The notes under the pieces are model-generated. The model saw only the letters and a list, made by a program, of their open reading frames with translations, was not told the DNA's origin and searched no databases. Shown here piece after piece: positions 1,700 to 41,853 of a DNA stretch of 64,000 nt. The stretch comes from Lachnospiraceae bacterium. Lineage in GTDB: Bacteria; Bacillota; Clostridia; Lachnospirales; Lachnospiraceae. A program made the position numbers and the translations under genes. Location of the stretch: contig JAFWDI010000017.1 of NCBI GenBank assembly GCA_017513125.1, positions 101,012-165,011 of the forward strand. The letters are read 5' to 3'. Each line of letters opens with the position of its first letter. The stretch's first letter is position 1.

Positions 1700-1717
1700 A
1701 AGCCGATCAGTCAGAAA

Positions 1718-3822: not shown

Positions 3823-4605
3823 TCACGACCACTGACTGAGCAGCTCGTTCATCCATTCGTGAACGTCCATGCCGTAGACCTGACTGAGGTGTTCCCTGGT
3901 CAAGACTTCGCCGGCGGGCCCGTCCGCGACGACGCGGCCGTGCTGCAGCAGAAGGACCTGCGTCCCGAAGGCTTTCGCGAGGCTCAGATCGTGCATGACG
4001 GAGATGACCGCACGCCCGGGAGTCTTCAGCCAGTCGGAGACTAGCCCCAGAAGCTGCTTCTGGTAGACCAGATCGAGATGATTCATGGGCTCGTCGAGGA
4101 TCATGATCTTCGGGTCCTGTGAAAAAAGCTGCGCGAGGAACACGCGCTGCAGTTCGCCGCCGGACAGCTGCAGGACGGATTTGTTTTCCAGCTCGGTGAG
4201 GCCGGTGAGGCGGAGCGCTTCGTCGATGGCCGCCTCACATCCGGGGTCGCCGCCGCCGAAGACGCCCTTCGAGTAAGCGTAGCGTCCCAGACGGATCACT
4301 TCCCGGACCGTGAAGGAGTAGCCCACGGCGTTCTTCTGCGCGAGCACGCCGATGTGCCGCGCCAGTTCATGGGGCTTGAAACTGCGGATGTTCCGGCCGA
4401 GGCAGAGCACCTCGCCGGTGCAGGGGGCGCCGCCGGAGACGGCATTGACGATCGTCGATTTTCCCGCGCCGTTCGGACCCACGATCATGAGCCACTGCCC
4501 CTCCTCGAGGTCGAAACTCACGGAATCCAGGACAACATAGTCTCCGTACTGCACATGCAGACCGCGGGCCTCCAGCATGAGCTGCTTTTTATGATCGCCG
4601 CCCAT
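3823..4605 (-). CDS. ABC transporter ATP-binding protein (FecE/BtuD type)
   Basis: Walker A GPNGAGKST, signature LSGGELQR, Walker B IMILDEP. The start overlaps the stop of the permease gene. Confidence 0.9.
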   Translation of the reverse strand: MGGDHKKQLMLEARGLHVQYGDYVVLDSVSFDLEEGQWLMIVGPNGAGKSTIVNAVSGGAPCTGEVLCLGRNIRSFKPHELARHIGVLAQKNAVGYSFTVREVIRLGRYAYSKGVFGGGDPGCEAAIDEALRLTGLTELENKSVLQLSGGELQRVFLAQLFSQDPKIMILDEPMNHLDLVYQKQLLGLVSDWLKTPGRAVISVMHDLSLAKAFGTQVLLLQHGRVVADGPAGEVLTREHLSQVYGMDVHEWMNELLSQWS

Positions 4606-5690: not shown

Positions 5691-5748
5691 AACGCTTCCT
5701 TCGGGCAATGCCCCGGCGGATTTGCTCCGGCTGCCGCCGGAACGGTGT

Positions 5749-6814: not shown

Positions 6815-6995
6815 ACAGAAAAGCCTTCCTTAAATACTGCAAGGAAAGGCCAGCGCGTGCTCGATCACTGCCGCAGCCGTCCATCGCGACCTTTAGCGAC
6901 GATGCCGCGCTTCGGCGATCCGGCTTGCGATCACGCTCACGGTTGCGGGACAGCGCAGGATTTGCACCTGCTTCTCCGATAGGCGGCATATATAT
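6815..6995 (-). promoter_or_regulatory. cobalamin (B12) riboswitch with terminator-type expression platform
   Basis: Minus strand reads ...atgccgcctatcGGAGAAGCAGGTGCAAATCCTGCGCTGTCCCGCAACCGTGAgcg...aagccggatcgcc...gcggcat, which is the conserved cobalamin-aptamer core. It is followed by the hairpin gcctttcctt/aaggaaggc plus a U tract just before the SBP gene. Confidence 0.8.
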
Positions 6996-7045
6996 ACTAT
7001 CACCTGCGCGAATCTGCCGCAACAAAATGCCGGATCCGGGAGTGT

Positions 7046-14503: not shown

Positions 14504-14516
14504 GGATTTCGTGAAG

Positions 14517-14569
14517 GCGCAGCGGACAGCGAACAGCCCGAAGGGCTGTGAGATGGAGCGCTGCGGCGC
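14517..14569 (+). repeat. possible truncated copy (mid-rod only) of the structured element
   Basis: gcgcagcggacagcgaacagccc-gaa-gggctgtgagatggagcgctgcg resembles both arms of the U3 rod (1510-1527/1638-1657). The apical junction is replaced by a GAA loop. Confidence 0.35.
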
Positions 14570-14614
14570 TCGGTCCGCATGAACGTGCGCGGCCGCAGGA
14601 AAGCGTAATAACAC

Positions 14615-14648
14615 AAAAAAACGTCCCCGATCTCTCGGAGACGTTTTT
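14615..14648. terminator. bidirectional terminator (enoate reductase 2 / tRNA-Lys)
   Basis: Hairpin 14621-14644 flanked by an A run on the left and a T run on the right. Confidence 0.75.
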
Positions 14649-14650
14649 CA

Positions 14651-20157: not shown

Positions 20158-23100
20158 ATGAAAAAGATATTGAAACGGGCGGCGGCCGTACCGGCGGCAC
20201 TCCTGGTACTGGCCGCGCTTCTTTTGATCCTGCCCCCGCAGACCGCCTTCGCGGCGAAGGACCTCGGGGACGGCATTTATTCTCATAACTATCAGGGCTG
20301 GTTCGGGAGCGGCCTGGACAGCCTGCTGATCGCTTGTTTCCGGACGGCGATTCCGGAGGACGCGGTGCTGGTCACGCCGGGAGGCGAAGTCATTGCCCGC
20401 AGGGAGATCACCTACGTCGACGGGATGCATCTGATGAACGCGGTCTCGGCCAATGACTCGGGCCCCCGCACACACGCGTACATGCGGCTCACGCATCTGT
20501 GGCGGGACGCCGCGGGGAACCCGGTCTACTGCTATGACTATGCGACGGACGATAACGGCACGCGGGCGCTGTATTCGTTCGATGATCTGCCCGCCTCCTA
20601 TGTGAACCGCGACCGGTTCGTGCGGGCCTGGCAGATGGCGTCGGCATTGTCCGCGGACGGTTTTGCACTGCTGAAGGCGAACCTGCGCGGCGCCTGCCGG
20701 GACGTGACTTCGGTCGTGGATCCCTCGTGGGTCATGAGCGGCGAGGTCACATATCAGGCATTGGTCAATGACACGAACGCCCTCCAGGCTATCGTCCAGG
20801 AATGCGTGTGGCTCGTGATGCATGACGCGTCCGCGGGCGAGATCCAGGTCGGGACTTCGTTCGGCGGCGGGGGACAGTGGATCCACACGAAAGACGGGGA
20901 CGTCTGGACCGAGACAGGGCTGCAGTCGGAGACGGCGGAGAACGGAACGTTTATCGATTTCGCGCTGCTGATCGGCGTCGGGACCGGGGCGGGAGCGCCT
21001 TACGGGACCCCGGATCTGGTCTCGTCGGGCTCGACCCCGGGAGACATCACGAACCCCGGCGCGTCCGGCGGGCAGCTGCTGGTCGTGGTGAAGCTGCAGG
21101 AGCCGACCGGGTTCCTGCGCGTGCGGAAGGTGAGTGCGGATCCCGGCATGACCGGCGGGAACCGGATGTATCCGCTGGGCGGGATCACGTTCCGGGTGTA
21201 TGCCGACGAAGACTGTACGGAACCCGCGGCCGGACCGGACGGGGCGGCCGTCGTTCTCACCACGAATGAGCGGGGAGTGACCGGGACCGCGGAACTGGCT
21301 CCCGGGGTCTATTGGGTGCGTGAAGACGCGTCCACGGTCGGAAACTGGGTCTGGAACGAACAGCCTGTTCGGGTCGAAGTCACGGCGGACCGCACGGCCG
21401 AGGCGCCCGCGGAGGCATCCGTGGCCAATGAGCCCGCGGCCTGCCCGGTCGGCATTTTCCTGACGAAGATCGACGCCGAGACCGGGGAGAGCCGGCCGCA
21501 GGGGACCGCGTCGCTGGAGGGCGCGCGGTTCACGGTGGAGTATTACGACGCTCCGGCCGCGTCGGGCGAGCCGCTGCGGACCTGGGAGTTCGGGACGGAT
21601 GCGGACGGCGTCGTCAGGATGGACGCCGCACATCTGATCTCGGGAGATGAGCCGTACACGGCTTCGGGCAGAGCAGGAAGCGGCGGCGGAGGCGCGGCAG
21701 GTCAGTTCGTCATCCCTGCCGGCACGGTCACGATCCGGGAGACGCAGGCGCCTGTGGGCTATCTGGAAAATGAAACGGTCCATACCGTGCACATCACGGC
21801 GCGGGGCGGTGCGGCCGTACCGGACGTTCCGTTCGTGCGGCACGGGAATACGGCGGACCTGCGGCTGCGCTGCGAAGAACAGATCATCCGGGCGGATCTG
21901 AAGTTTTCGAAGCTGGACATTGACGGGAGCCCGATGGCGGGGGTCCGCTTCCGGATCGATCTGCTGGACGCGGAAGGGGATACCGTCGAGAGCCATGAAG
22001 CCGTCACGGACGAAAACGGCCGGTTCGACACTTCGGCCGGGGATACCGGCATCCGGTTCGGCGGGCCGTCCGCGGGAGGCACGGACCGGGGAGCGCTCAT
22101 CTTCGGACGGTACCGGGTCACGGAGCTGCCCTGCGCCGCGAACGCGGGTCACGATCTCCTCGCACAGGAGTTTACGGTCTCCGAGGACGGAAAGGTCTAT
22201 GAGCTTTCGGCGGTATTCATCGACCTGGTCATCCACCTGGAGTCGGACCTGATCGATGATGCGAGCGGGACGCGGACCGTGACGCTCGCGGAGGAGACGC
22301 CGGTCACGGACACATTCCGCTATGACCATCTGAAGACTTCGAAGACCTATGTTCTGGAGACCGAGATCGTCTGGGTGAGCGAAGACGGAAGCGGGCGGGA
22401 GTCACTGGGTTCCGGCCGGGTGACGTTCGTTCCGGAGTCACAGGATGGCGGACAGACCGCGGGCGGGACCGTCAGGAACACGGTCGCTGTGCGGACGCTG
22501 GGGCTGAACGGCGGCACGCTGCACGCGGTCGACCGGCTCTATCAGGAGGAAGACGGGGAAGAGATCCTTCTCACGACGCATAACGAAGATCTGAGCGAGG
22601 AGCGGCAGACGCTGCGCGTGCCGTGGATCGGGACGACCGCCGCGGACACAGCTTCGGGAGATCATATCGGCACGCTTTCCGGGGAGGCGTCGGTCACGGA
22701 CGTCGTGGAGTACCGCGGGCTGGCCGACGGGATGTACCGGCTGGAGGGAACGCTGCGCGACGCGGAGACCGGCGAGGCGGTCGCGGGTCCGGACGGCGAA
22801 CCCTGCGCCGTGACGAGGCTGCTGCGCGTCAGCGGGAAACTGACTGACATGCAGGAGCGCGGCGAGATGACGGCCGGGCCGGCGGACGGCGAGGTGACCA
22901 TGCCGGAGTTCCGGTTCGACGCGTGCGCATATGCGGGGCGGACGCTCGTCGTGACGGAGGTCCTTTTCGATTATGATACCGGCGCGGCGCTTCTGGCGCA
23001 CGACGACCTTTCCGACGAAGATCAGCAGGTCTCCTATCTGCGGATCACGACGTCCGCTTCGGCCGCGGATACCGGGGATCACGTCGCCGGAAACCTTGAG

Positions 23101-24780
23101 GAGTGCGTGATCACGGACGTTGTGACATACGAAGGACTGCGGACGGACGGGAGCACCTATACGCTGCGGGGATACCTCGCGGACGGCGAGACCGGCGGGC
23201 CGGTCCTGGTCGGCGGCGCGCATGTGGAAGCGGAGACGGAGTTCGTACCGGAGGAGCCGTCGGGACAAGTCGCGATGACGTTTACGTTCGATGCGTCGGC
23301 ATTGGGCGGGACCCGGATCGCAGTATTCGAGGAACTGCTGCACGAAGGCGTGAGCGAAGCGGTCCACGCGGACCCGGAGGATGCGGATCAGATGGTCTAT
23401 ATTCCCGCGATCCGCACGAGCGCGCGCGACGCGGGGACCGGAATCGACCACACGCGGGCGGAAAGCGGGGCCGAACTGATAGATAACGTATGTTATTCTA
23501 TGCTCCTGCCGGACCGCGAGTACACGCTGCGGGGATATCTGGTGAACAGGAACACGGGCGAACCGCTCACGGACGCCGAAGGTGCGCGGATCGAAAGCGG
23601 GACGGTCTTTACACCGGAGACTTCGGAAGGCTCGGTCGACGTGACGTTTCCGTTCGACGCGGACCGGTTTTCGGGCGTGCCTGTCGTGGTGTTCGAGGAG
23701 CTGTATCTCGGGGAGACTCTGCTCGTCTCGCATGCCGATATTGATGACGAAGAGCAGTCCGGCTACATCCCGGAGATCCGCACGAACGCGGTGTTCGCGG
23801 AGACCGGGGAGCACATCGCGGAGGCGGCGGGACAGGTCACGGTCGTCGATACGGTCATGTACGAGGGGCTGCGCCCGGACACGAAATACGTTCTGACGGG
23901 GACGCTCACGGACCGGGAAACCGGCGGGACGGTCTCTGCGGACGGACGGCCGGTGACCGCGGCCGTGACATTTGTGACGGGGCATGCAGAGGAAGCGCAG
24001 AGCGGCAGCCGGACCGTCAGCGGTTCGGTCGATGTTGAGTTTACGTTCGATGCGTCTGTGCTGGCAGGGAGAACGCTGACGGCGTGCGAGACATTGACCA
24101 GGGAAGGCCGGGAAGTCGCGGTCCATGCGGACCTGAATGACGAGGCGCAGACCGTATATCTGCCCGGGGTCGCCACGCGGGCGTCAGACCGGCGGAGCGG
24201 GACGCAGGAGCTGAGCCTCGGGACGAGATCGGTGCTGGTCGATGAGGTCGATTACGAGGACCTGCTGCCCGGCCGCACATACACGGTCCGCGGAACAGTC
24301 ATGGACCGTGCGTCCGGAACAGCCCTGCGGGACGCGGAGGGCGAGCCGGTGACGGCGGAGACTGTGTTTGCCCCGGAGACTCCGGACGGTACGGCCGAGG
24401 TGGAGTTCCGGATCGACACGAGCGGGCTGCACGGCAGGGAACTGGTGGTGTTCGAACGGCTGTATACGGCCGCGGGTGACGGATCCGGAAACGGGGGCGG
24501 GGAGGATGAGCTTCTGATCGCCCGGCATGAAGATCTGAATGCGGCTTCGCAGACCGTCAGAGTCCCGGAGCGGCCGTCCGCGGTCCTGACCGGAGACCGT
24601 GCGAGACCGGCGGTTCTGATCGGGCTGTGCGTGTGCGCGGGAGGCGCGGCGGTATGCTGCGGATCCGCGCTCATCCCCGCCCGTGACCGGCTGTTTCCCA
24701 AACGAAGCCGGGGAAAAGAGGCTTCCCTGTCAGACGCAGATCAGCTCGAAACCGGCGGAATGAGTGAAAGAAAAGCGTAA
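20158..24780 (+). CDS. cell-wall-anchored adhesin: candidate thioester domain + SpaA/CnaB-like domains + about 6 ester-bond (VaFE-type) repeats
   Basis: Signal peptide ...PPQTAFA. YCYD and VQECVW motifs. TIRETQAPVGYL-type prealbumin-fold modules. Repeats end in VVFEELY...HxDxxDxxQ...IxTxAxD. C-terminal VLTGD, hydrophobic stretch and basic tail. Confidence 0.85.
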   Translation: MKKILKRAAAVPAALLVLAALLLILPPQTAFAAKDLGDGIYSHNYQGWFGSGLDSLLIACFRTAIPEDAVLVTPGGEVIARREITYVDGMHLMNAVSANDSGPRTHAYMRLTHLWRDAAGNPVYCYDYATDDNGTRALYSFDDLPASYVNRDRFVRAWQMASALSADGFALLKANLRGACRDVTSVVDPSWVMSGEVTYQALVNDTNALQAIVQECVWLVMHDASAGEIQVGTSFGGGGQWIHTKDGDVWTETGLQSETAENGTFIDFALLIGVGTGAGAPYGTPDLVSSGSTPGDITNPGASGGQLLVVVKLQEPTGFLRVRKVSADPGMTGGNRMYPLGGITFRVYADEDCTEPAAGPDGAAVVLTTNERGVTGTAELAPGVYWVREDASTVGNWVWNEQPVRVEVTADRTAEAPAEASVANEPAACPVGIFLTKIDAETGESRPQGTASLEGARFTVEYYDAPAASGEPLRTWEFGTDADGVVRMDAAHLISGDEPYTASGRAGSGGGGAAGQFVIPAGTVTIRETQAPVGYLENETVHTVHITARGGAAVPDVPFVRHGNTADLRLRCEEQIIRADLKFSKLDIDGSPMAGVRFRIDLLDAEGDTVESHEAVTDENGRFDTSAGDTGIRFGGPSAGGTDRGALIFGRYRVTELPCAANAGHDLLAQEFTVSEDGKVYELSAVFIDLVIHLESDLIDDASGTRTVTLAEETPVTDTFRYDHLKTSKTYVLETEIVWVSEDGSGRESLGSGRVTFVPESQDGGQTAGGTVRNTVAVRTLGLNGGTLHAVDRLYQEEDGEEILLTTHNEDLSEERQTLRVPWIGTTAADTASGDHIGTLSGEASVTDVVEYRGLADGMYRLEGTLRDAETGEAVAGPDGEPCAVTRLLRVSGKLTDMQERGEMTAGPADGEVTMPEFRFDACAYAGRTLVVTEVLFDYDTGAALLAHDDLSDEDQQVSYLRITTSASAADTGDHVAGNLEECVITDVVTYEGLRTDGSTYTLRGYLADGETGGPVLVGGAHVEAETEFVPEEPSGQVAMTFTFDASALGGTRIAVFEELLHEGVSEAVHADPEDADQMVYIPAIRTSARDAGTGIDHTRAESGAELIDNVCYSMLLPDREYTLRGYLVNRNTGEPLTDAEGARIESGTVFTPETSEGSVDVTFPFDADRFSGVPVVVFEELYLGETLLVSHADIDDEEQSGYIPEIRTNAVFAETGEHIAEAAGQVTVVDTVMYEGLRPDTKYVLTGTLTDRETGGTVSADGRPVTAAVTFVTGHAEEAQSGSRTVSGSVDVEFTFDASVLAGRTLTACETLTREGREVAVHADLNDEAQTVYLPGVATRASDRRSGTQELSLGTRSVLVDEVDYEDLLPGRTYTVRGTVMDRASGTALRDAEGEPVTAETVFAPETPDGTAEVEFRIDTSGLHGRELVVFERLYTAAGDGSGNGGGEDELLIARHEDLNAASQTVRVPERPSAVLTGDRARPAVLIGLCVCAGGAAVCCGSALIPARDRLFPKRSRGKEASLSDADQLETGGMSERKA

Positions 24781-29970: not shown

Positions 29971-31092
29971 TCAGCACATCTCAGCGAACGCCTGCACCGC
30001 CGAGCGGATCTGCTCGTAGTTCACCATCTGGCGGTCCACCTCGAGCGACAGCACCCGGATGCCGGCGGCGTCCGCCATCCGCTTCACGGGCACGAAGTCG
30101 TACTCCTCGGGATCGCAGAACTTCGTCATGACCCAGATGATGCCCTCGGCGCCTGCCTGCTTCGCGAGCTCGACGAGCTCCTTCCCGCGCTGCTTGCCGG
30201 GGTCGAAGAGGATGCTGCAGCCTTCGAGCTTCCCGTAGCGCTCGGCCATGCCGATGATCGGGTCTTCCGTGACCGGGGTCTGCGTCCGCGCGTCCACGCT
30301 CTCCGCGGCGATCTGGTCCGCGGCGATGCAGATCCGGTTCTCCTCGAAGATCTCCAGCAGCGCCGGCGAGTCCGCCAGGATGCCGGTCGTGACGACGCGG
30401 ATGTATCCGCGGTCCCCGGGCTCCGCCGCGAGGAGTTCCGCAAGCTCCGTCAGCAGCTTCGCGTGCTCGGCCCGGTCCATGAAGAAGCCGGCCTTGATGA
30501 CAGCGCTGCGCTTCGCTGCGGGGACGAGCTTCGGGTGCTTTCCGGCCGCGTCCGCGAACGCGATGATCGCCGCGCGGTCCGCGTTATAGACCTCGACCGC
30601 CGCCGCGATGTCCGCGTCCGTGATCTCACGCCCGGCGATCTCTGCGAGCTGCCCGCGGATCTTCCGCAGCTGCGACGCGGTGAACTCCGTGCCGGCGTCG
30701 ATCTTCCGGTTCTGCGCGTAGGCGACATTGATCACCGGAATGTCCTTCACGGACACCTCCCAGTTCGTGGCCATGCCCTTCAGACTGTCGCACGAGAACG
30801 GGATCATGATCGCGGAAAGCCCTGCGAGCTTCCCGGTGATGCCCAGCTCCAGCACCGAGTGCAGGATCGAGCAGATGAACGCGGGGTAGTAGCGCCGCGA
30901 CTGGTCGCAGACCATGTCCGCGCCCCACAGCCCGAACGGCTGCATGCCCGCGGCATAGACCAGTTCCTCGGGGCAGAAATACGGCATGACTCCGACGGCC
31001 TTCTTCCCGGCGGCCAGACATGCGTCCAGCTGCGCCCGCGGGTTCCGGCTGATCGTCTCCAGCTGCGTTAAGATATCATCGATCCTGCTCAT
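29971..31092 (-). CDS. 2-hydroxyacyl-CoA dehydratase, beta subunit (FldC/HadC/HgdB-like)
   Basis: 373 aa, HgdB-family-like sequence. The start overlaps the stop of the alpha subunit gene. Confidence 0.8.
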   Translation of the reverse strand: MSRIDDILTQLETISRNPRAQLDACLAAGKKAVGVMPYFCPEELVYAAGMQPFGLWGADMVCDQSRRYYPAFICSILHSVLELGITGKLAGLSAIMIPFSCDSLKGMATNWEVSVKDIPVINVAYAQNRKIDAGTEFTASQLRKIRGQLAEIAGREITDADIAAAVEVYNADRAAIIAFADAAGKHPKLVPAAKRSAVIKAGFFMDRAEHAKLLTELAELLAAEPGDRGYIRVVTTGILADSPALLEIFEENRICIAADQIAAESVDARTQTPVTEDPIIGMAERYGKLEGCSILFDPGKQRGKELVELAKQAGAEGIIWVMTKFCDPEEYDFVPVKRMADAAGIRVLSLEVDRQMVNYEQIRSAVQAFAEMC

Positions 31093-32306
31093 GCCTGCGC
31101 CTCCTTCGCTCTCTTTCTCTCATCCATGATCTCGGCCAGCGCCTCGACCCGGGTCTCGTACTGCGCCTCCGAGAACACGCGCGGATCCGACTGGTCGCCG
31201 TCGAACATGACGGTCGGCACACCGGTCTCCTCGCGGAAGCGGCGCTCCAGTTCGTAGAGGTTTCCGCTCCAGTTCTTGCACGAGCGGTTCATGTGGAAGA
31301 CCGCGCCGTCGACCTTGTGGGCGATCGCGTCCTTCACGCGCATCTCGAGCTCTCGCTCGAAGCAGTTCGAGTTCGGCACGTAGGCGTAGGCGGCCATCAG
31401 CTCGTCCATGTTCTGATAGAGGAACGAGAACGCGGGGCCGTAGACCGACGCAGTGAGATTGATGCCGCGCGACTGCAGCGCCTTATACGTGAACCGCAGG
31501 TTCGCCCAGCAGGCGATGCCTTCGAACAGGATCCGGTGTTTCTCCTCGCCCTTGAACGTGGTCTCACCCTTCGCGGCGAGCTCCTCGTACTCGTCGGCGA
31601 GCGCTTCGAACGCCTCCGCAGCGGCGACCGTGCCGCGTCCGACGCAGGCGACCGCCATGTTATTGAAGATATCGAAGCCGGAGAACGGGCTCGGGGTCGC
31701 GCTCATGCTGGCGATCGCGCGCAGCCACGCCCGGCTCGAGCGCTGCGAGACGTCCATGACCTCGCGGAAATGATCCCAGTCCATCTTCTTCCCGGTGATC
31801 TCCTCGAGCTGCCGCACGCAGTCGTCGAACTGCGCACGGATGTAGCGGATGCGGTCCTCGTCGCAGGTGTACTTGTCCAGGTGCGGGATGTCGATCATCA
31901 GCAGCGGGATGTCCAGCTCGAGCGCCAGGTTCTCGTACCACTTCATCATGCAGTTGCAGATGTTGTTGCAGCACAGCAGGAAGTCCGGCATCGGGATCTC
32001 CTGCTCGGCGCACTCCTTCAGGTCCGCGTAGGCGAAGTTGATGCGCGAGTAGGAGCACAGGTCGTTCGAATAGCCCATGCCCTCCGCGTACTCGCACATG
32101 CGCTGTCCGCCGCCCTTCGCGCCGACGGCCGCGCCCATGTTCTCGGGATACGTCACCTGGATCCCCATCGCGGTCGTGATCTCCTGCGGGAAGTTCGACG
32201 CGCACCAGCCGATCTTCTCGCCGCGGTTCTTCGCGTCCCAGACGTCCTGCGCGATCTTGTCCTGCAGTTCGCGCAGGATCACTTTTGCGGATTTCTTTTC
32301 TTCCAT
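31089..32306 (-). CDS. 2-hydroxyacyl-CoA dehydratase, alpha subunit (FldB/HadB/HgdA-like)
   Basis: MEEKKSAKV start behind AGGAGG, about 405 aa. HgdA-like (GWCASNFPQEI..., conserved Cys residues). Confidence 0.8.
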   Translation of the reverse strand: MEEKKSAKVILRELQDKIAQDVWDAKNRGEKIGWCASNFPQEITTAMGIQVTYPENMGAAVGAKGGGQRMCEYAEGMGYSNDLCSYSRINFAYADLKECAEQEIPMPDFLLCCNNICNCMMKWYENLALELDIPLLMIDIPHLDKYTCDEDRIRYIRAQFDDCVRQLEEITGKKMDWDHFREVMDVSQRSSRAWLRAIASMSATPSPFSGFDIFNNMAVACVGRGTVAAAEAFEALADEYEELAAKGETTFKGEEKHRILFEGIACWANLRFTYKALQSRGINLTASVYGPAFSFLYQNMDELMAAYAYVPNSNCFERELEMRVKDAIAHKVDGAVFHMNRSCKNWSGNLYELERRFREETGVPTVMFDGDQSDPRVFSEAQYETRVEALAEIMDERKRAKEAQA

Positions 32307-32370
32307 GTAGGTTCCTCCTGTTTTATGGGCCATGCTCCGGCCCGCGCCGGTACGTGTCCCGGCCCGGCCG

Positions 32371-33171
32371 TCATTGCCCCGCCTTCCTGTATGCGTGCAA
32401 CGCCGCTCCGTAAGCTCCGCAGAGCTGGGAGTCCGGCGAGATCATCAGTTCGCAGCCGAGCTCCTGCCCGAGCGCGCGGATCATGCCGCGGTTTTGCGCC
32501 ACGCCTCCCGTGACCGCCGCCGGCAGCACGAGGTTCATGCGCCGCACCAGACTCGCGGTCCGCACCGCCGCGGACTCGTGGATGCCGCGGACGATCTCGG
32601 GGATCGGGGTCCCCTTCGCGAGCTGCGAGATGACCTCGCTCTCCGCGAAGACCGTGCAGGTCGAGCTGATGCCCGCGCTCTGTTCGGCTTTTCCGTCCAT
32701 GTCGCCCAGCTGCGTGACGTCGAGCTCCAGGATGCGTGCCATCACTTCGAGGAAACGGCCCGTTCCCGCGGCGCATTTGTCGTTCATCACGAAATTATCC
32801 AGCACGCCGGCCTCGGTCAGCCGCAGGACCTTCGCGTCCTGCCCGCCGATGTCGATGACCGTTCGGACGCCCGGGAAGAACGCCGCCGCGCCGATCGCGT
32901 GCGCGGAAAGCTCGCTGATGACCAGGTCCGCCTCGGCGAAGCTGTTCCGCCCGTATCCGGTCGCGGTTATCATCGCGATGTCCTCCCGCCGCAGCCCGGC
33001 CTTCGCGAGCACGCCCTCGAAGGCTCTCGCCGGCCCGCCGGTCCCGGCGCCCGCGCTCTCGACGGTCGAGGCGGCCATCTCCGCGCCGTTCTTCAGGATC
33101 ACGCACTTCGACGCCGCCGAACCGATGTCCGCGCCGAGCGTGTAAATGTCAGTTCCCATCGCATTTCCCAT
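32371..33171 (-). CDS. 2-hydroxyacyl-CoA dehydratase activator ATPase (FldI/HadI/HgdC-like, BcrAD/BadFG family)
   Basis: LGADIGSAASKCVIL, DIGGQDAKV and ND.CAAGTGRFLE (cluster-bridging Cys) motifs. Confidence 0.85.
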   Translation of the reverse strand: MGNAMGTDIYTLGADIGSAASKCVILKNGAEMAASTVESAGAGTGGPARAFEGVLAKAGLRREDIAMITATGYGRNSFAEADLVISELSAHAIGAAAFFPGVRTVIDIGGQDAKVLRLTEAGVLDNFVMNDKCAAGTGRFLEVMARILELDVTQLGDMDGKAEQSAGISSTCTVFAESEVISQLAKGTPIPEIVRGIHESAAVRTASLVRRMNLVLPAAVTGGVAQNRGMIRALGQELGCELMISPDSQLCGAYGAALHAYRKAGQ

Positions 33172-33172
33172 A

Positions 33173-34417
33173 TCAATATCCGTGTGCGCCCTTCAGGTCG
33201 TCCCAGGTGTTATAGACGCCGGCCTCGTGCATGGTCCGCATCTCCTCCTCACTGTAGCCGAGACCCCGGATGACCTCCTCGCTGTTCTCGCCGAGCAGCG
33301 GCCCCATGGGATAATCCGGCAGCTCCCCGCCGACGAAGACGGGCTGGCGCACCAGCTTCCGGACGGCCCCGGTCGGATAGTGCATCTCGTAGAAGACGTC
33401 CGCCGCGTTTGCCTGCGGATCGTCGAGCACTTCCTCCCAGCCCTGCAGCAGGCTGTGCGGGATGTCGTTTTCGGTCAGGATCGCGTCCCATTCCGCCGCG
33501 GTCTTCTGCGACAGGGCTTCCTGAACGATGTCGATGAACTCTCCGTGAAGCTTATTCTCGGTGATGTTATCCATCGTATACCGCGGGTTCCCGACCAGGT
33601 CCGCGCGGCCGATCAGCGGCATGAAGCGCGGGAAGAACATGTCGAACGGCGGCATCGACAGCTGCAGGAACCGCTCGTCCTTCGTCAGGTAGGTGCCGTT
33701 AAAAGGATTATCCAGCGTGCGGTGGGAGATCGGGTACTTCTGTCCCAGATCCGTGTACTGCGCGGCCTGGAGCGGGATGCCCTGCATAAAGATGGAGGAG
33801 TGCAGCAGGTTCGTGCTGACGCGCTCGCCGACGCCGGTCTTTTCCGCCTGGTAGAGCGCCGCCATGACGCCGGCCGCGAGGTTCATGCCCGCCACGTGGT
33901 CGCCGGTGCCGGGGACCAGGTTGATGGGCCACTCGCCTTTCTGGCGCAGCGACTCCATGAAGCCGCCCCGCGCCCAGAACGCGGTGAAGTCATAGCCCGG
34001 AAGGTCCTTGTCGGGGCCCTTGTCGCCGTAGCCGGTCAATGTTCCGTACACCAGCTTCGGGAACCGCTCGTGGAGCGTCTCGTAGCCGAAGCCGTTCTTC
34101 TCGAGCGCCTGCGGGCGCCAGTTCGTAAGGAAGACGTCCGCGTCCTCGAGCAGCTTGAAGAAGATCTCGCGTCCGCCCTCGGACTTCAGGTTCAGGACGA
34201 TGCCTTTTTTATTCGCGTTTTCGAGGTCGAACGTCGTGTTCTCGAAGGCGCTTCCGCTGCGTCCTTCGCTGACGCCGGCCCAGCGGACCGCGTCGCCGCC
34301 CTTCGCTTCGATCTTAATGACCTCGGCGCCCTGGTCCGCCAGGAACCGGGCGCATGCCGGGACCGCGATCATGGTGCTGAGCTCAATGACTTTTACGCCT
34401 TCCAATGCCTTGCTCAT
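33173..34417 (-). CDS. family III CoA-transferase (FldA/HadA/CaiB-BaiF type)
   Basis: LEGVKVIELSTMIAVPACARFLADQGAEVIKIE N-terminal signature, 414 aa. RBS AGGAGGAAA. Confidence 0.85.
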   Translation of the reverse strand: MSKALEGVKVIELSTMIAVPACARFLADQGAEVIKIEAKGGDAVRWAGVSEGRSGSAFENTTFDLENANKKGIVLNLKSEGGREIFFKLLEDADVFLTNWRPQALEKNGFGYETLHERFPKLVYGTLTGYGDKGPDKDLPGYDFTAFWARGGFMESLRQKGEWPINLVPGTGDHVAGMNLAAGVMAALYQAEKTGVGERVSTNLLHSSIFMQGIPLQAAQYTDLGQKYPISHRTLDNPFNGTYLTKDERFLQLSMPPFDMFFPRFMPLIGRADLVGNPRYTMDNITENKLHGEFIDIVQEALSQKTAAEWDAILTENDIPHSLLQGWEEVLDDPQANAADVFYEMHYPTGAVRKLVRQPVFVGGELPDYPMGPLLGENSEEVIRGLGYSEEEMRTMHEAGVYNTWDDLKGAHGY

Positions 34418-34536: not shown

Positions 34537-34887
34537 ATGATCGTACAGGTTTCCGTGCTGACGAAGGTGCTGGATGAGAGCATCGCGTTCTATGAGAAGT
34601 ACATGGGTTTTCAGATCATTAAGGACGTGCGGCCGTTCGGTCCGCCGATCGTTTTCATGGCGGAGAGCGCGGACGATCCGGCGACCCTGGAGCTGATCGG
34701 CTCGGACAAGCCGTATCAGGGCGAAGGCGTCTATCTGGGGATCCACGACGACGATCCGGATAAAAAACGGGCGTTATTTATCGAGGAAGGCCTCGAGGTC
34801 TCCGAGATCGCGGAGCCGGAGCCGGGGGTGAGGCTGTTTTTCGTGAAGGATCCGAACGGGCTGCAGGTGAAGGTCACATCGGCGTGA
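34537..34887 (+). CDS. VOC/glyoxalase-family protein (116 aa)
   Basis: MIVQVSVLTKVLDESIAFYEKYMGF... start behind GGGAGGAG; ends in FFVKDPNGLQVKV. Confidence 0.7.
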   Translation: MIVQVSVLTKVLDESIAFYEKYMGFQIIKDVRPFGPPIVFMAESADDPATLELIGSDKPYQGEGVYLGIHDDDPDKKRALFIEEGLEVSEIAEPEPGVRLFFVKDPNGLQVKVTSA

Positions 34888-34900
34888 AGATGTCCGCGAG

Positions 34901-35135
34901 CGCTGCAGGCACAGACTGCAAAGGTGGTTCGGCGCTCCCTGAATGACATCGTCGTAAAAACACAGAAGCAAGGGGCACAGCTCATATTCAGCGCGAAATC
35001 TCCGATGGATTTCGCGCTTCAGATGAGCTGAAACGCTCGGTACGGTAACCGGCGTTTCTCCCCTTGCTTTTTATGTGTTTTTCCGACGGCCATTCATGGT
35101 CGCGTCTCAAACCTCCGCAGTCTGTGCCCGCAGCG
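34901..35135 (-). repeat. structured palindromic element, copy U1 (inverted relative to U2/U3)
   Basis: 24-position outer stem 34901-34924/35112-35135. P1 34956-34975/35060-35082 encloses hairpins 34978-35030 and 35031-35057. Conserved blocks at 35095-35104 and 34926-34941 (reverse complement). Confidence 0.7.
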
Positions 35136-35261
35136 GTACGGAGTGCCTCATACGCCGGCGCCGACGTCACCTTCAGAGGTTGAACTTAAGTGCTCTATGT
35201 GTACCGGTTTCGGAGACCTGAACCGCGGCCGTGCGCGGCGGACGGCGGTTATTTGGCAGCG

Positions 35262-35481
35262 CCCTGCAGCGGAGAAAGCCTTGAGCCGCGACCATGAAGA
35301 TCCTGGCGAACACGCAGAAAAGCAGACGGAGAAATGATGGTTTCGGAACCATCATTTCAGATTCGGGTGGCGGGAAATCCATCAGAGATTTCCCGTCACC
35401 TCGAATCGGTGCCGTCTGCTTTTCAATAGTGTGAGGCGATAATATTCAGGGAGCGGTGAACCGGTTTTCTCCGCTGAAGGG
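35262..35481 (+). repeat. structured palindromic element, copy U2
   Basis: Outer stem 35262-35277/35466-35481. Perfect 13-bp P1 35317-35329/35412-35424 encloses hairpins 35332-35357 and 35360-35407. Conserved blocks cgcgaccatg (35287-35296) and cagggagcggtgaaccg (35447-35463). Confidence 0.7.
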
Positions 35482-35484
35482 TGC

Positions 35485-35530
35485 TGTCGTAAACACATCC
35501 GCCCGCGCAGGGAGCGGTGAACCGCCTCTG
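35485..35530 (+). repeat. partial copy of the structured element
   Basis: gtcgtaaacaca (similar to the U1 P1 arm) followed by an exact second copy of cagggagcggtgaaccg (35508-35524). Confidence 0.45.
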
Positions 35531-35627
35531 AAACGGGTACGTAAGAGCACTCATTTCGCTTACCCCATTGACCGATTCTGTAGTATAATGCACCTGTATT
35601 ATAGTCTCTTGACGGAAGCACACAGGA

Positions 35628-37039: not shown

Positions 37040-40000
37040 ATGCGTGAACGTCTGGGGTATCTCGCCAGAGGCCATATCGATTACGGAAAGAGCGCGCTTA
37101 TCGTCTCTTCGAACGCCATTCAGATGCCGGTCGGCGCCGGCACCGTCGAGAAGGGTTCGTTCGAACTGACGAATTCCGCGGGACTCACCGCCATGAAGGG
37201 ACTCGTCCGCTCGACCGACAGCCGCGTCCGCGTTTGGGACGACCGCTTCGTGAGCGGGACCGTGAAGATCCGCTTCGAGGTGAACGCGCAGTTCGAGGAG
37301 CCTGACAGCGCCATTGAGGGCGAGTTCCAGATCATCTCGAGCTGCGGGGAGCACTCAGTCCCCTTCCGCTTCGATATCGTGAACACCGCCGCGGATCACG
37401 CGTCCGGGATCGAGACTCCGGACGATCTCGCGCGCCTCGCCGAGGAGGACGAGGCCGCCGCGTTCTCGCTGTTCACGTCCCCCGGGTTCATTCATCTGCC
37501 GTTCATGAAGAACGGAAACTACCGCGTCCTGTACTCCGGCCTGATCGGCGGAGTGGGGAAGCGCGCCGCGATGGAGGAGTTCCTGACCGGCATCGGTGTG
37601 AAGGAGCGCGTACATCTGAGCGTGAACACCGGGCCGCGGTCCTACGTGATGACGAACGGCGCGATCGCCGACAGCATCACGGTCACGCGGAGCACCTGGG
37701 GTTATGTGAGTCTGGACGTGCGCTCAGACGCGGAGTTCCTGGTTCCCGAGAAGACGTCCTATACGAACAATGACTTCGAAGGCGACCTTCTGAACATCCG
37801 CTACCGGGTGGATCCGAAGGCATTGCACGCGGGAAAAAATTTCGCCCGCCTGAAGATCGACACGGCGGAGAAGTCCTTCGTGATGGACGTGGAGGTCCGC
37901 ACGCAGGGCACTGCCGACGGGGAGGAGATCATTGCCCGGCAGGCGTATCTGAACTACTGCGACCTGTACGTGAACTACCAGCTGCAGGACGGCCACGCGC
38001 ACACGCTGCTGGCGCGGATGCAGTCCGAGCTGACGCGCATGCGCAGCGGCGCCTATGAGACTTCGGATCTCGTCGAGCTGCAGCATGCGGAGATCTTCGC
38101 GCTTCAGGGCCGGACCGAGCAGGCGCAGATCCTGCTCGAGGACGCCGGATCGCGCGTGATGGACGTGCGGAACACGGACGTGGCCGCCTACTGCTACTAC
38201 CTCTATGTGAGAGACCTTCTGGAGCCTTCCGACTCCCTGAAGGAACTGCTTCTGCAGAAGCTGCTGGTCTGCTCCGAGAGCGGAGGACTTCCGGATGACG
38301 CGGTGATCTCTCTGCTGCTGCGGATGGATCCGGTCATGAACGGGAACCCCAGCATGAAGCTCTCGCAGATGAAGGGCTGGTACCGGATGGGCTGCCGCAG
38401 CGCCTTCCTGTTCATGGAGGCGGCGCTGACGGCGGTGCAGAACCCGGAGCTCATCCGCGTGCTCGAGCCGTTCGAGCAGTACATGTTCGATTTCGCGGTG
38501 AAGCACGGCATGGTCACCGACCGCCTCGCGATGAAGGCTGCCGACATGGCGGTCCGCGCGAAGGACCCGACGGGGCGCTTCCTGTACACGCTGATGGACC
38601 TCTACGATCAGAAACCTTCAAAGGAACTGATCGAGGCGATCTGCACGAACCTGATTCGCGGGGGCTGCCGCGGGAGCGAGTGGTTCCGCTGGTATCGCGC
38701 CGGCGTGGAGCAGGATGTGCGCATCACCGGACTCTACGAGCACTTCCTGTATTCGATGCCCGACGACTACCGCGAGCCCTGGCCGCGGATGGTATTGCTG
38801 TACTTTTCGTATAATTCCGTTCTGGACGAGGCTGCGGGCTCGCGCCTCTACCGCTATGTGAACGACCACCCCGACCGGGATCCGGAACTTCGCGAGCGTT
38901 ACCGGACGCAGACCGAGCGCTTCGTGCTGCGCCAGCTGGCGGAGGGCCGCATGAATAACGATCTGGCGGTCCTCTACGACGCCTATCTGGCCCCGGAAAT
39001 GATCGGCGATGAGCTGCTGCCGCGGCTGCCGGAGATCGTGTTCGGCCACAGTATCCGCTGCGAGGCTCCGCAGGTGACGCACGCGGTCGTCTGCTACGAG
39101 GAGCTGCGCGACGAGACCGTCGTTGAGTTCCACGACGGCGTGGCCTGCGCCCCGATCTATACCGAGAACGCGAGAGTCCTCACGCAGGACGCGCGCGGGA
39201 ACCGTTACGAGAGCTTCCCGGTCACGGTCCGTCCGCTGACGCGGAACGCCGACCTGAAGCGCTGGTGCATCGCGAAGAACCCTTCGAACGAGATGATCCT
39301 GCTCGCCTGCGGCAGCCGGGACGGCGCGAAGGACGGCGATGCGGTCGTATACCGGCAGAAACTCCTGCATTTCGAAAATCTTCATCCCGCCTACCGCAGG
39401 GATGTGTTCACCGGACTTACCGAGTGGTATCTGGAACATCCGGACGCGGAGGGCGGCGAAGACTTCCTGCTGACCACGGACAAGCGCTTCCTCGATCCGA
39501 AGGACCGCGCCCGCGTCATCGACCTGATGATCGACAAGGACCTGCTGCCGGAGGCCTGGCGGCTGGTCGAGAAGTTCGGGCCGGCGGGCATTGCCCCCGA
39601 AAAACTGAAAGAACTGTGCAGCCGCATGGTCATGGAGCGGCTGTACGGATACGACGAGCGCGTGCTCGACATGGCGCAGATCTGCTTCGCGAACGACGAA
39701 CTGGACGATAAGATCCTCGAGTATCTGTGCTGCTGGTACAATGCCTCCTCGGCCGACATGTACCGACTTCAGCGGAAGGCTGCCGAGGCCGGCACGGACT
39801 CGCACGACCTGGAGGAGCGCCTGCTCGGGCAGATGCTCTTCTCGGGCGAGACGGAGCATCTGGACGAGATCTTCCTGGCGTATATCGCGCGGTCGTCCTG
39901 CGACGAGATCATCCTGAAGGCCTTCCTCGCGGTGAAGAGCTGGCTTTACGTGATGAAGGGCGAGAAGATCGATACCGACATCGAGCAGTACATGGCGCAG

Positions 40001-40576
40001 CTGTGCGACCAGAGCGACATGCGCGCGCTGCCGGACATCTGCATGATTGCGCTGACGCAGTCGGCCTCCGAGCGGGTGAAGGACCTGACGGCGGAGGGAA
40101 AGGACCTCGTCGAGCGGATGATCCGCAGCCTCTGGGAGAAGGGCTATCTCTTCGGCTTCTATTCAAAGTTCTCGAAGGTCGTGGCGCTTCCCGACGAGTT
40201 CGCGGACAAGGCCATCGTAGAGTACCGCGGCGCTCCGGGCCGGAACCTCCGGATCGTCTGGCGCCTGGCGGACGAAGAGGAGGAGAGCGCGGATCTGCCC
40301 GAAGTGTTCGAGGGCGTCTACGCGACCGCGCTCCCGCTGCTGTACGGCGAGGAGCTGAAGTACGACATCCTTCAGGCGAGCGTCGGCGACGTGCTGACGT
40401 CGGGCACGGTCCGGTTCCTCGGAAAGCCGAAGGCGGCGGCCGTGACGCGTACCGCGGCGCTGAACCGGATCCTCGCGGCGATCGCGAAAGACGACGACGC
40501 TGCGGTCGAGGATGAGATGATGGATTATGCCGTCAAGGACGGCCTGATCGAGAAGTGCTTCACACCGATGGAGTGA
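37040..40576 (+). CDS. uncharacterised 1178-aa protein: N-terminal beta-sandwich-like module + about 1000 aa helical repeats
   Basis: GAAGGAG RBS. Coding-like composition throughout. I recall a Firmicutes DUF family (possibly DUF5717) of this size and neighbourhood; this is unverified. Confidence 0.75.
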   Translation: MRERLGYLARGHIDYGKSALIVSSNAIQMPVGAGTVEKGSFELTNSAGLTAMKGLVRSTDSRVRVWDDRFVSGTVKIRFEVNAQFEEPDSAIEGEFQIISSCGEHSVPFRFDIVNTAADHASGIETPDDLARLAEEDEAAAFSLFTSPGFIHLPFMKNGNYRVLYSGLIGGVGKRAAMEEFLTGIGVKERVHLSVNTGPRSYVMTNGAIADSITVTRSTWGYVSLDVRSDAEFLVPEKTSYTNNDFEGDLLNIRYRVDPKALHAGKNFARLKIDTAEKSFVMDVEVRTQGTADGEEIIARQAYLNYCDLYVNYQLQDGHAHTLLARMQSELTRMRSGAYETSDLVELQHAEIFALQGRTEQAQILLEDAGSRVMDVRNTDVAAYCYYLYVRDLLEPSDSLKELLLQKLLVCSESGGLPDDAVISLLLRMDPVMNGNPSMKLSQMKGWYRMGCRSAFLFMEAALTAVQNPELIRVLEPFEQYMFDFAVKHGMVTDRLAMKAADMAVRAKDPTGRFLYTLMDLYDQKPSKELIEAICTNLIRGGCRGSEWFRWYRAGVEQDVRITGLYEHFLYSMPDDYREPWPRMVLLYFSYNSVLDEAAGSRLYRYVNDHPDRDPELRERYRTQTERFVLRQLAEGRMNNDLAVLYDAYLAPEMIGDELLPRLPEIVFGHSIRCEAPQVTHAVVCYEELRDETVVEFHDGVACAPIYTENARVLTQDARGNRYESFPVTVRPLTRNADLKRWCIAKNPSNEMILLACGSRDGAKDGDAVVYRQKLLHFENLHPAYRRDVFTGLTEWYLEHPDAEGGEDFLLTTDKRFLDPKDRARVIDLMIDKDLLPEAWRLVEKFGPAGIAPEKLKELCSRMVMERLYGYDERVLDMAQICFANDELDDKILEYLCCWYNASSADMYRLQRKAAEAGTDSHDLEERLLGQMLFSGETEHLDEIFLAYIARSSCDEIILKAFLAVKSWLYVMKGEKIDTDIEQYMAQLCDQSDMRALPDICMIALTQSASERVKDLTAEGKDLVERMIRSLWEKGYLFGFYSKFSKVVALPDEFADKAIVEYRGAPGRNLRIVWRLADEEEESADLPEVFEGVYATALPLLYGEELKYDILQASVGDVLTSGTVRFLGKPKAAAVTRTAALNRILAAIAKDDDAAVEDEMMDYAVKDGLIEKCFTPME

Positions 40577-40593
40577 CGGAACGGAGGCAGACT

Positions 40594-41853
40594 ATGGGAC
40601 TGATCATGGGCGTTGACCTTTGCGACGACTACAGTCAGGTCAGCTGGTTCGACAAAAAGATCATGGACGCGGTCCAGGCGGGCACCTCCGAGAAGGAGGA
40701 GTCCTGCCTGATACCTTCGGTGGTGTGCCGCAGAAAAAAGACGGACGACTGGCTGATCGGCGAGGACGCCTATCTGCTGGCGCTCGACGGCGAGGGCACG
40801 ATGGTGGATAAGCCCGTGAAGCTTCTCGAGAAGAAGGGCACGGCCACGATCCGCCGCGTGAAGTATACCGCCTCGGACATCATGCGGATCTTCCTGGAGA
40901 AGCTGATCAATCTCGCGAAGGCCCGCAGCGGCGAGACCGAGATCGAGAGTCTCGTGATCACGCTGCAGGATACATTGCCCGAGGTGCTCGACGCGATGAT
41001 CGGGATCACCGACAGCCTCGGGATCGCGCGCGAAGCGGTGCATATCATCAATCACTGCGAGGCTTACATGTTTTACGTGCTGAGCCAGAAGAAGGAGATC
41101 TGGGCGAACAACACCTGCCTGTTCGACCTGAACGCGAACGATCTGTTTTATTACGAGTTTTCGGTCATGCGCGGGCGGAAGCCCCAGCTGGTGCAGGTCA
41201 GCGGGATGCCGCTCGAGGAGGGCTTCAGCCTCGAAGTCCTGGACACGGAGTCCGGTGAGAAGACCGCGGACACGATACTGACGACCTGCGCGGGCCGCCT
41301 GCTGGATAAGAAGATCATCACGACGGTCTTCCTGACCGGAAAGGGTTTCGAGCGCACGGACTGGGCGCCGGAGTTTCTGCGGACCGTCTGCCAGAAGCGG
41401 CGCGTGTTCTACGGCCAGAACCTGTTCGCGAAGGGGGCGGCGTTTCTGGCGTATGACGCGACATTGCCCCAGACAAGCTTCCCGTACGTCTGCGTCTGCG
41501 AGGGCCGGATCCCCTCGACGATCTCGATGCGCGTGCTCTACGAAGGCAGGGAGCGTCAGCTCGTGGTGCTCTCGGCCGGCACGAACTGGTACGAGGCGAA
41601 GTCCACGGTGGACCTGATCCTCGAGAGTGAAGATTATCTGGAATTTTACGTGACGCCGGCGGCGGGCACGACGCAGAAGCGCTATGTGGTGGATCTGTCG
41701 GAGTTTCCGGCGCGGCCGGTGCGCACCACCAGGGTGCAGGCCGTGTTCGCGTTTACGGACGACCGCCGCATGACGGTGCGCGTGATCGACAAGGGTTTCG
41801 GAGAGTTCTTCCCGGCGAGCGGGAAGATGGTGAAGCAGGACTTCATTATTTGA
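40594..41853 (+). CDS. Hsp70/actin-fold protein with degenerate nucleotide-binding loops
   Basis: GVDLCDDYS aligns with DnaK GIDLGTTNS, LVITLQDTL...IINHCEAYMFY with AVITVPAYF...[12 protein letters not shown], and FDLNANDLF with FDLGGGTFD. GGAGG RBS before ATG 40594. Confidence 0.75.
   Translation: MGLIMGVDLCDDYSQVSWFDKKIMDAVQAGTSEKEESCLIPSVVCRRKKTDDWLIGEDAYLLALDGEGTMVDKPVKLLEKKGTATIRRVKYTASDIMRIFLEKLINLAKARSGETEIESLVITLQDTLPEVLDAMIGITDSLGIAREAVHIINHCEAYMFYVLSQKKEIWANNTCLFDLNANDLFYYEFSVMRGRKPQLVQVSGMPLEEGFSLEVLDTESGEKTADTILTTCAGRLLDKKIITTVFLTGKGFERTDWAPEFLRTVCQKRRVFYGQNLFAKGAAFLAYDATLPQTSFPYVCVCEGRIPSTISMRVLYEGRERQLVVLSAGTNWYEAKSTVDLILESEDYLEFYVTPAAGTTQKRYVVDLSEFPARPVRTTRVQAVFAFTDDRRMTVRVIDKGFGEFFPASGKMVKQDFII

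Follow-up and report, generated by a model that had tools for sequence, protein, structure and literature searches.

Head-to-head structured palindromic repeats around VOC and rarA genes, probably mobile DNA of uncultured Lachnospiraceae

Among described intergenic repeats, bcr1 (Group A bcr) of the Bacillus cereus group appears to be the closest analogue of the family that we report here, a likeness in what has been described of the two. The bcr1 repeats are transcribed, are accompanied by short direct repeats and are distributed non-conservedly between strains; their cruciform-like fold, a stem with two stem-loops, is kept by compensatory changes, and they have been described as a special class of mobile sequence (PMC3184786). 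Our subject is a 64,000-nucleotide stretch of contig JAFWDI010000017.1 from a Lachnospiraceae bacterium (the whole stretch is called the window below), in which a 749-bp gap, from the stop of a 116-aa glyoxalase/VOC gene (34537–34887) to the ATG of rarA (35637), holds two full copies, U1 and U2, and one decayed copy, U3, of a hairpin repeat; a third full copy, W3, lies elsewhere in the window. We think it probable that U1, U2, U3 and W3 are lineage-specific, non-coding, non-autonomous palindromic repeats of uncultured Lachnospiraceae, of the kind of structured miniature inverted-repeat transposable elements (MITEs) or of repetitive extragenic palindromes and bacterial interspersed mosaic elements (REP/BIME), and that they are mobile or recombinogenic DNA. 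They are not a dedicated RNA gene tied to rarA, because they have no promoter or terminator of their own, their position is not conserved, and they show turnover between strains, nesting and mosaicism. The family is previously undescribed, although the structured MITE/REP class itself is known.

Both bcr1 and the present family are intergenic repeats of Firmicutes whose positions are not conserved between strains and whose stem and two stem-loops carry compensatory changes. They differ in that bcr1 measures ~155 bp and has a regular 5-bp direct repeat, whereas the family measures 230–280 bp and has one ambiguous 6-bp junction repeat; the family also has conserved mismatched boxes in a long rod, strict pairs with their 5' ends inward, and nesting. 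MITEs such as Correia/nemis, ERIC, RUP and Chunjie are short, non-coding, multi-copy intergenic sequences that vary between strains and form long, very stable stem-loops at the RNA level (PMC3184786). The family is likewise short, non-coding, multi-copy, dispersed between genes and polymorphic for presence or absence; however, MITEs have terminal inverted repeats that match an insertion sequence (IS), regular target-site duplications and usually near-identical copies, whereas the family termini are conserved only as CTGCRG, its copies are 45–75% identical and it has no known parent IS.

REPINs offer a precedent for inverted doublets that a single, separately encoded enzyme propagates: a REPIN is a hairpin of two conserved inverted blocks, thought to be mobile and to be recognised as folded single-stranded DNA (ssDNA) by that enzyme, and REPIN–RAYT systems persist for long periods with vertical inheritance (PMC3337134, PMC3116915). 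The family resembles REP, BIME and REPIN sequences as extragenic palindromes at gene 3' ends that form inverted doublets (all nine neighbouring pairs of the family). It differs in size and build, as REPs are ~25–35 nt and REPINs ~70–110 nt, with a conserved 5' tetranucleotide and no three-way junction, whereas the family unit is 230–280 nt with a three-way junction, its boxes are not palindromes, and no RAYT lies in the window or beside the copies. REPIN–RAYT systems have been described mainly from proteobacteria.

The copies in the window and their parts are as follows.

34868–35175, minus strand: the entire U1 hairpin, from its inverted repeat and the outermost enclosing pair of the fold
34899–35136, minus strand: U1, a full copy, from its folds and a covariance-model match of 192.6 bits on the minus strand
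35093–35104, 35031–35057, 34978–35030 and 34926–34941, sense on the minus strand: box I, hairpin H1, hairpin H2 and box II of U1, the boxes found by pattern search
35137–35253, no strand: the spacer that separates the 5' ends of U1 and U2; towards its right side (35186/35201–35253) it forms the 5' arm of U3
35254–35489, plus strand: U2, a full copy, from its folds, its inverted repeats and a covariance-model match of 207 bits on the plus strand
35287–35298, 35317–35329/35412–35424, 35331–35358, 35360–35407 and 35445–35463, plus strand: box I, stem P1, H1, H2 and box II of U2
35490–35554, plus strand: the 3' arm of U3, with box II at 35508–35524, from an outer stem that pairs with 35186–35253 and from a direct repeat
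1442–1719, plus strand: W3, the third full copy, from nhmmer and the covariance model (125.9 bits; model match 1469–1696)

The original prediction for this gap, made from the sequence alone, was of two mutually inverted rods, each with a three-way junction, in a region free of any credible open reading frame (ORF). Both parts are borne out. The folds, the inverted repeats (I3, I5, I6, I9 and I11–I15) and the alignment of U2(+) to U1(−) give two mutually inverted three-way-junction hairpins, and gene callers on three public assemblies of the VOC–rarA locus placed zero genes in the 749 bp, where the ORFs overlapping the U1 and U2 hairpins are all ≤69 aa. A small protein was considered, as the ATG of box I starts a 46-aa ORF in U2, and was rejected because that frame is broken by indels between copies and the gene callers are silent. 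Exact-pattern searches found CGCGACCATGAA and CAGGGAGCG(G/C)(T/C)GAACC, within the window, in this gap only, the second block with three matches against 0.34 expected.

The U1 hairpin is closed by an outermost 17-bp stem (34868–34884 with 35159–35175), which is retained in the orthologous loci L007 and L010; its left arm coincides with the final 17 nt of the VOC reading frame and takes in most of the stop codon region. In the right part of the spacer, the 5' arm of U3 (35201–35253), which carries a degenerate box I, GAGACCTGAACCGCGGCCGTG, at 35213–35233, pairs with the 3' arm at 35490–35540, and complementarity read from the sequence between 35186–35205 and 35536–35554 takes the outer stem of U3 on to 35554. 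This leaves U2 nested within an older, decayed outer copy, and the hairpin enclosing it (35201–35540) folds at −204 kcal/mol. The recurrence of the second block at 35508–35524 had been taken for a partial copy; it is indeed a box II, not in a loose fragment but in the decayed U3 that encloses U2.

W3 has variant boxes (CGCGACCATG / CAGGAAGCG), which exact-pattern searches missed. On one side of it is a ferredoxin gene with its terminator, and on the other a flavin oxidoreductase gene that runs towards it and ends there with its stop codon. The terminator, at 1327–1362 after the 56-aa ferredoxin gene, is canonical, intrinsic and bidirectional-looking (GAGCGCCGTACCTCTCAGGAGGTGCGGCGCTTTTTT); it is intact and W3 lies behind it, so W3 is not needed for termination.

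A copy is an imperfect hairpin of 230–280 nt. From 5' to 3' its sense strand passes through an outer stem, variable but bearing YCTGCRG ... CYGCAGR, then box I ((T)TGARNCGCGACCATGAA), another variable stem, the A-rich strand of P1 and the junction GGAGAAAT; H1 follows with the loop (A)TCCGA(A), then TTTCAG, H2 with the loop C(C)ATCGGAG and GGTGCC, and the strand returns through the T-rich side of P1, box II (TTCAGGGAGCGGYGAAC) and the outer stem. The three-way junction (GGAGAAAT ... ATTTCAG ... GGTGCC) thus carries two short hairpins with conserved loops. The boxes form a conserved asymmetric pair, CGCGACCATGAA opposite TTCAGGGAGCG, with a tandem G.A and one bulged A; they had been assigned to an unpaired internal loop, which proved wrong, as the segment is nearly paired throughout (CGC/GCG, tandem G.A, CC/GG, one bulged A, UGAA/UUCA). 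Between the boxes and the junction the stem varies, its 5' strand A-rich and its 3' strand T-rich. The two arms are mutual inverted repeats in which, near the base, only YCTGCRG/CYGCAGR is conserved, and the ends of the hairpin differ from copy to copy. Beyond the limits of the model the hairpins extend with copy-specific sequence (duplex of a copy's own flanks −21.2 kcal/mol, with flanks of other copies −15.9 kcal/mol; permutation p < 0.0002), and these outer shells often bear extra CTGCGG/CCGCAG motifs.

We collected copies with one exact two-box pattern scan of genomes and metagenomes, followed by a profile and a covariance model, R1. The exact pattern yielded four copies on four contigs of one uncultured Lachnospiraceae metagenome-assembled genome (MAG) and, in metagenome contigs, ten true copies plus two chance matches to unrelated sequence (L006 and L016); the profile and model R1 added copies that the pattern had not chosen. 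The iterative search with a covariance model, which had been proposed from the first two copies, did recover more, to a total of 22 in the window, one MAG (6 copies on 4 contigs) and metagenome contigs of related uncultured Lachnospiraceae, a number to be read as a minimum, since the genomes and metagenomes were each scanned with a single exact pattern. The window is part of a 276-kb scaffold, and its rarA shares 99% identity with the gene of a ‘MAG: Lachnospiraceae bacterium’, while the nearest isolates reach only 75%.

Nothing in the databases searched corresponds to the family. Over the whole window, Rfam 15 at gathering score gave no match in the gap, where even at E ≤ 10 the sole hit was a 10.7-bit chance match to SNORD17, and gathering-score searches of 14 other copy-bearing loci were also without a match. 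Known RNA families proposed or considered as candidates (6S, ROOL, GOLLD, HEARO/omega RNA, raiA, pRNA and others) were rejected on this basis. A plasmid or phage origin was likewise rejected: blastn found nothing in PLSDB or INPHARED that matches the gap, and in IMG/VR the exact pattern gave 0 matches and a looser one 100, all by chance and none confirmed by nhmmer. In full-text literature the box sequences occurred only in unrelated primers, and no paper joined Lachnospiraceae with MITE and hairpin.

U1 folds at −140.9 kcal/mol (z −13.6) on the plus strand and −149.3 (z −13.2) on the minus strand, and U2 at −145.0 (z −14.6) and −121.0 (z −10.6), respectively; zero shuffles matched the native energy in any of these four folds. 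Across the 22 copies, 94.8% of cells form a standard pair, compared with 69.7% after shuffling and 39–49% in slid registers, and the compensatory double substitutions first noticed between U1 and U2 prove general, with double-sided changes in 62 of 73 pairs and a covariation score of 0.688 against 0.206 shuffled and ≤0.15 in slid controls. Covariation is very strong across all 7 helices.

The fold also has a direction. Its sense strand is minus for U1 and plus for U2; the covariance model scores 126–232 bits on the sense strand and ≤38 bits on the antisense strand, and in 19 of 21 copies the sense strand has the better fold, with a mean advantage of 10.6 kcal/mol; both strands fold at −112 kcal/mol or stronger. 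Non-Watson–Crick cells of the sense strand comprise 49 G.T and 18 A.C (p ~2e-4 if cells are independent, which they are not fully). A strand polarity, hinted at earlier by a few stem mismatches, is therefore confirmed, but the divergent transcription read into it is not: no promoter-like (sigma-70-like) site was found in the gap, the U1–U2 spacer included, and the flanks of 21 copies share no motif, promoter or terminator, the 5' flanks having nothing in common. Divergent promoters in the spacer were rejected accordingly.

Junction and loop sequences are the best-conserved parts of the family, and the tandem G.A, the bulged A, the order of the hairpins and the junction strands are preserved in all 22 copies. 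H1 has the consensus loop UCCGA and H2 the complementary UCGGA (UCGG/CCGA instead in L007), with a mean complementarity above that of all 1000 shuffles; examples are the copies at L011 88–325, L009 4544–4782 and L013 3421–3657. As 5 bp are kept in only 5 of 20 copies, kissing loops were set aside as a firm feature and stay a lead. Conservation of the family fold greatly exceeds chance, and the fold is strand-specific and under selection, or at the least maintained. The asymmetries retained in every copy (G.A, bulged A, hairpin order, junction and loops) do require selection; with the excess of G.T over A.C as weaker support, they imply recognition of one strand while it is single-stranded and folded.

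Integron attC sites, too, are imperfect palindromes: they conserve structure, mismatches and extrahelical bases but not the central sequence, which is free, and their recognition is strand-specific and single-stranded. The family shares with them a conserved mismatched imperfect palindrome with strand polarity. Unlike it, attC sites are 57–141 nt long, have R and L boxes (GTTRRRY), lie in direct orientation after cassettes and have an adjacent integrase, none of which occurs in the family. Identity with attC was rejected, as the family boxes differ, the pairs are inverted and no integrase is found among the window ORFs.

Copies come and go between related strains. We compared ten contigs with an identical ferredoxin gene, plus the window, at the W3 locus, the strains being 2–4% apart, and the orthologous VOC–rarA loci.

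Ferredoxin–oxidoreductase spacer of 416 bp: filled with W3, in the window and 6 contigs
Ferredoxin–oxidoreductase spacer of 126–127 bp: empty, in 3 contigs
Ferredoxin–oxidoreductase spacer of 728 bp: doubled, with an extra minus-strand copy, in 1 contig (L031)
1400–1688, plus strand: polymorphic indel, carried by 7 assemblies and lacking from 3, with the 6-bp direct repeat AAAAAG at its boundaries
34888–35153, no strand: segment swapped in L007 for another family member, ~60% identical and in the same orientation, between flanks 96–98% identical
35464–35524, plus strand: segment absent in L010, a 61-bp deletion between the 17-nt direct repeats CAGGGAGCGGTGAACCG (box II of U2 and of U3)

The ferredoxin locus is thus filled, empty or doubled, and the U1 slot has been refilled in L007, where the replacement sits inside the same 17-bp outer stem as U1. 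At the empty ferredoxin junction GGGGCA, AAAAAG and CCGATCAG follow one another, and in the filled allele AAAAAG stands on either side of 283 bp. The indel (1400–1688) is offset from the hairpin (1442–1719), the right outer arm of which, CAGTCAGAAA, remains in the empty allele; the left part of the indel, TTTCTGACTG (10 nt), is complementary to that remnant. Offset and complementarity together favour a microhomology deletion of a long hairpin, and the indel is better read as such a deletion, which would fit at least as well as insertion with target-site duplication. Phylogeny does not separate insertion from deletion here, because the strains are recombining mosaics and their empty alleles are not monophyletic. 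The original prediction held that strain polymorphism with target-site duplications, together with no transcript on either strand, would make the unit an ordinary MITE. To a large extent this is what the DNA shows, in presence and absence between strains with a short junction direct repeat, replacement of U1, nesting and mosaicism, the single junction repeat being ambiguous as a target-site duplication.

Wherever two copies are neighbours (nine loci), the left one is on the minus strand and the right one on the plus strand, so that all nine pairs have their 5' ends inward, an outcome with a probability of (1/4)^9, ~4e-6, under random orientation. In two of these pairs one partner is incomplete: the contig end cuts the right copy in L002, and only a 46-nt fragment of the left copy exists in L012. 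Spacers measure 48–229 bp, and 966 bp in L011/L040. Pair partners are only 45–58% identical, and in L031 a minus-strand partner has been added beside the resident plus-strand copy; this speaks for an origin of the pairs in separate events and not in an inverted duplication.

The long spacer of L011/L040 contains a TTGACA-17-TATAAT promoter, a 174-aa membrane protein and an HTH_26 regulator, and no transposase. Inverted copies that bracket a promoter and two passenger genes without a transposase recall a mobile insertion cassette (MIC, in the generally understood sense), with the difference that only one such cassette was found and that, where it recurs, its ends are broken inside the copies and not at their outer tips. 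The membrane-protein and HTH_26 genes recur at 92% identity in L036–L039 (for example at L036 844–2009) in another, AT-richer context, followed by two other small genes; the block shared with L036–L039 extends from within H2 of the left copy to a point ~20 nt inside the right copy. In the window itself, a 148-bp spacer before a tRNA gene (14503–14650) has short hairpins with CTGCGG/CCGCAG at the place where L011/L040 have a ~1.4-kb insert of copy(−), cassette and copy(+); it may be what an element of this family left behind.

The copies are intergenic and lie among unrelated housekeeping genes, usually hard against stop codons and often between convergent genes. Their neighbours are FAD oxidoreductase, purH, nitrogenase-like protein, BipA, SDR, FemAB, GltD, acetate-kinase-like protein, ferredoxin, VOC and rarA genes; no gene recurs beside the copies, and the copies share no conserved ORF. 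The ~49 ORFs of the window, and likewise 10 genes next to other copies, are of the housekeeping kind, with no Y1-transposase domain among the window ORFs and no parent IS in the 64-kb window or the other loci compared. A rarA leader or riboswitch was rejected, since related genera keep the order rarA–DUF5717–DUF5716 but have upstream gaps of only 167–274 bp and no copy in 40 kb around rarA; the VOC–rarA gap is not a regulatory leader of rarA. In the window the DUF5717 (1178 aa) and DUF5716 genes follow rarA at 37040–41850 on the plus strand, and this order is retained in L019 and L022, where rarA is 77–78% identical.

The most serious rival to mobile DNA, and in our estimate an unlikely one, is a multi-copy structured non-coding RNA (ncRNA) family, in which a sense rod would be transcribed, the tandem G.A would be a protein-binding site, the junction loops would perhaps kiss and spread through the genome would be secondary. 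Covariation in all 7 helices, the better sense fold in 19 of 21 copies, the 49 G.T against 18 A.C, the split of model scores between strands (126–232 against ≤38 bits), and a junction and loops that are the best-conserved parts, with UCCGA/UCGGA complementary above shuffles, are all what such an RNA would show. Yet the copies examined have neither promoter nor terminator, there is no Rfam relative at E ≤ 10, and strains that are nearly identical differ in that copies are missing, replaced, nested or truncated. In the pairs, moreover, the sense strand is never the one in the adjacent gene's proximal 3' untranslated region; the loop complementarity holds in only 5 of 20 copies, and the G.T excess could be mutational. 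The earlier conclusion that conserved loops on covarying stems mark a selected RNA or ssDNA fold, as opposed to a decaying repeat, stands as regards a maintained fold and is not supported as regards a selected RNA gene, the units being dispersed, polymorphic and nested repeats. Very strong covariation and a strand-specific fold in a family that turns over like mobile DNA are a caution for RNA discovery.

That copies almost invariably follow the 3' ends of genes, where many of them take up the whole interval between convergent stops, and that both strands fold at −112 kcal/mol or stronger would suit domesticated cis-acting messenger RNA hairpins, which would block read-through or protect 3' ends in the manner of REP/BIME, their strand features being incidental. 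We regard this as improbable. It leaves unexplained the conserved asymmetric boxes, junction and loops and the strict orientation of the pairs; W3 lies behind an intact intrinsic terminator, and strains without the W3 copy exist.

In long DNA palindromes, paired changes in the arms can arise without RNA selection, by template switching or hairpin-module conversion (quasipalindrome mutagenesis), so covariation alone does not show RNA selection. Such switching or conversion fits the mosaicism that we observe, in which apical hairpins 85–100% identical recur in varied combinations between copies whose arms are only 40–70% identical. Taken to its extreme, the same process would make the copies inert, decaying duplicates, their shape held purely by arm-to-arm DNA template switching and with no partner function. 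Outer stems that grow with copy-specific sequence are in keeping with this, and paired changes are expected from quasipalindrome correction; template switching should, however, erase asymmetries, and the G.A, bulged A, hairpin order and junction strands persist in all 22 copies, which makes this account very improbable. Least probable of all is that U1 and U2 are arms of a site-specific inversion or cassette-exchange system with the boxes as crossover sites and a spacer that is flipped or swapped: pairs are always inverted with 5' ends inward, one pair brackets a promoter and two genes, and the L010 deletion runs exactly between two box II copies, but no recombinase is nearby, solo copies are common, partners are only 45–58% identical and the orthologous loci L007, L010, L017 and L023–L025 include no inverted-spacer allele.

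We therefore return to mobile or recombinogenic DNA as the favoured reading, under which copies would spread or be exchanged as DNA by the action of an enzyme whose gene lies elsewhere in the genome. The enzyme may recognise the folded sense strand as ssDNA, chiefly by its mismatched box pair and junction, and insertion would favour sites within or beside existing hairpins. Complementarity of the arms might be upheld partly by templated repair or conversion between arms and copies and partly by selection for a hairpin, and long hairpins would also be lost through microhomology-mediated deletion. Any effect on VOC or rarA, such as a block to read-through or an mRNA 3' hairpin, would be a by-product.

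Several observations weigh against this reading. Copies within a genome are old and diverged (45–75% identical), unlike a recent MITE burst, and lack sharp conserved termini; W3 diverges between strains as much as its flanks do. A direct repeat is found at one junction only (the 6-bp AAAAAG), is itself ambiguous, and no target-site duplication is unambiguous. Among the ~49 window ORFs and beside every copy, there is no transposase, recombinase or RAYT-like gene. Finally, the conserved loops and junction and the G.T excess (49:18) point to selection on a folded strand, for which RNA fits as well as ssDNA.

A more specific mechanism, which we would call a long shot, is self-targeting: a putative enzyme would insert a copy at the apex of, or beside, existing hairpins, with the variable 5' outer arm pairing with the flank of the target; its substrate would be the folded sense strand, as RNA or ssDNA, including the mismatched boxes, the three-way junction and the complementary loops. 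Two cases are suggestive, namely TTTCTGACTG opposite CAGTCAGAAA in the empty allele and the 17-nt arm opposite the end of the VOC reading frame. If true, it would be a new hairpin-directed, base-pair-guided mobility mechanism in Firmicutes. An unusually large and ornate palindromic repeat family is added to the Lachnospiraceae, bacteria of gut and digester. Its head-to-head pairing, onion-like nesting and extension, and shuffling of apical modules go beyond current models of REP or MITE propagation, and the pairing, nesting and shuffling could be studied in the many MAGs available.

Three other features of the window are recorded here. Immediately upstream of the VOC gene, at 29974–34417 on the minus strand, is a 2-hydroxyacyl-CoA dehydratase gene set that comprises two HGD-D subunits, a BcrAD_BadFG activator and a family III CoA-transferase. 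An AdoCbl (B12) riboswitch (52.4 bits, 6863–7001, minus strand) stands upstream of a transporter operon at 3826–6738 (minus strand) for a periplasmic-binding protein, FecCD and an ABC ATPase. At 20158–24777 on the plus strand, a 1540-aa protein with five T-Q ester-bond domains and a SpaA-type fold is probably, from its predicted domains, a surface adhesin with intramolecular ester cross-links.

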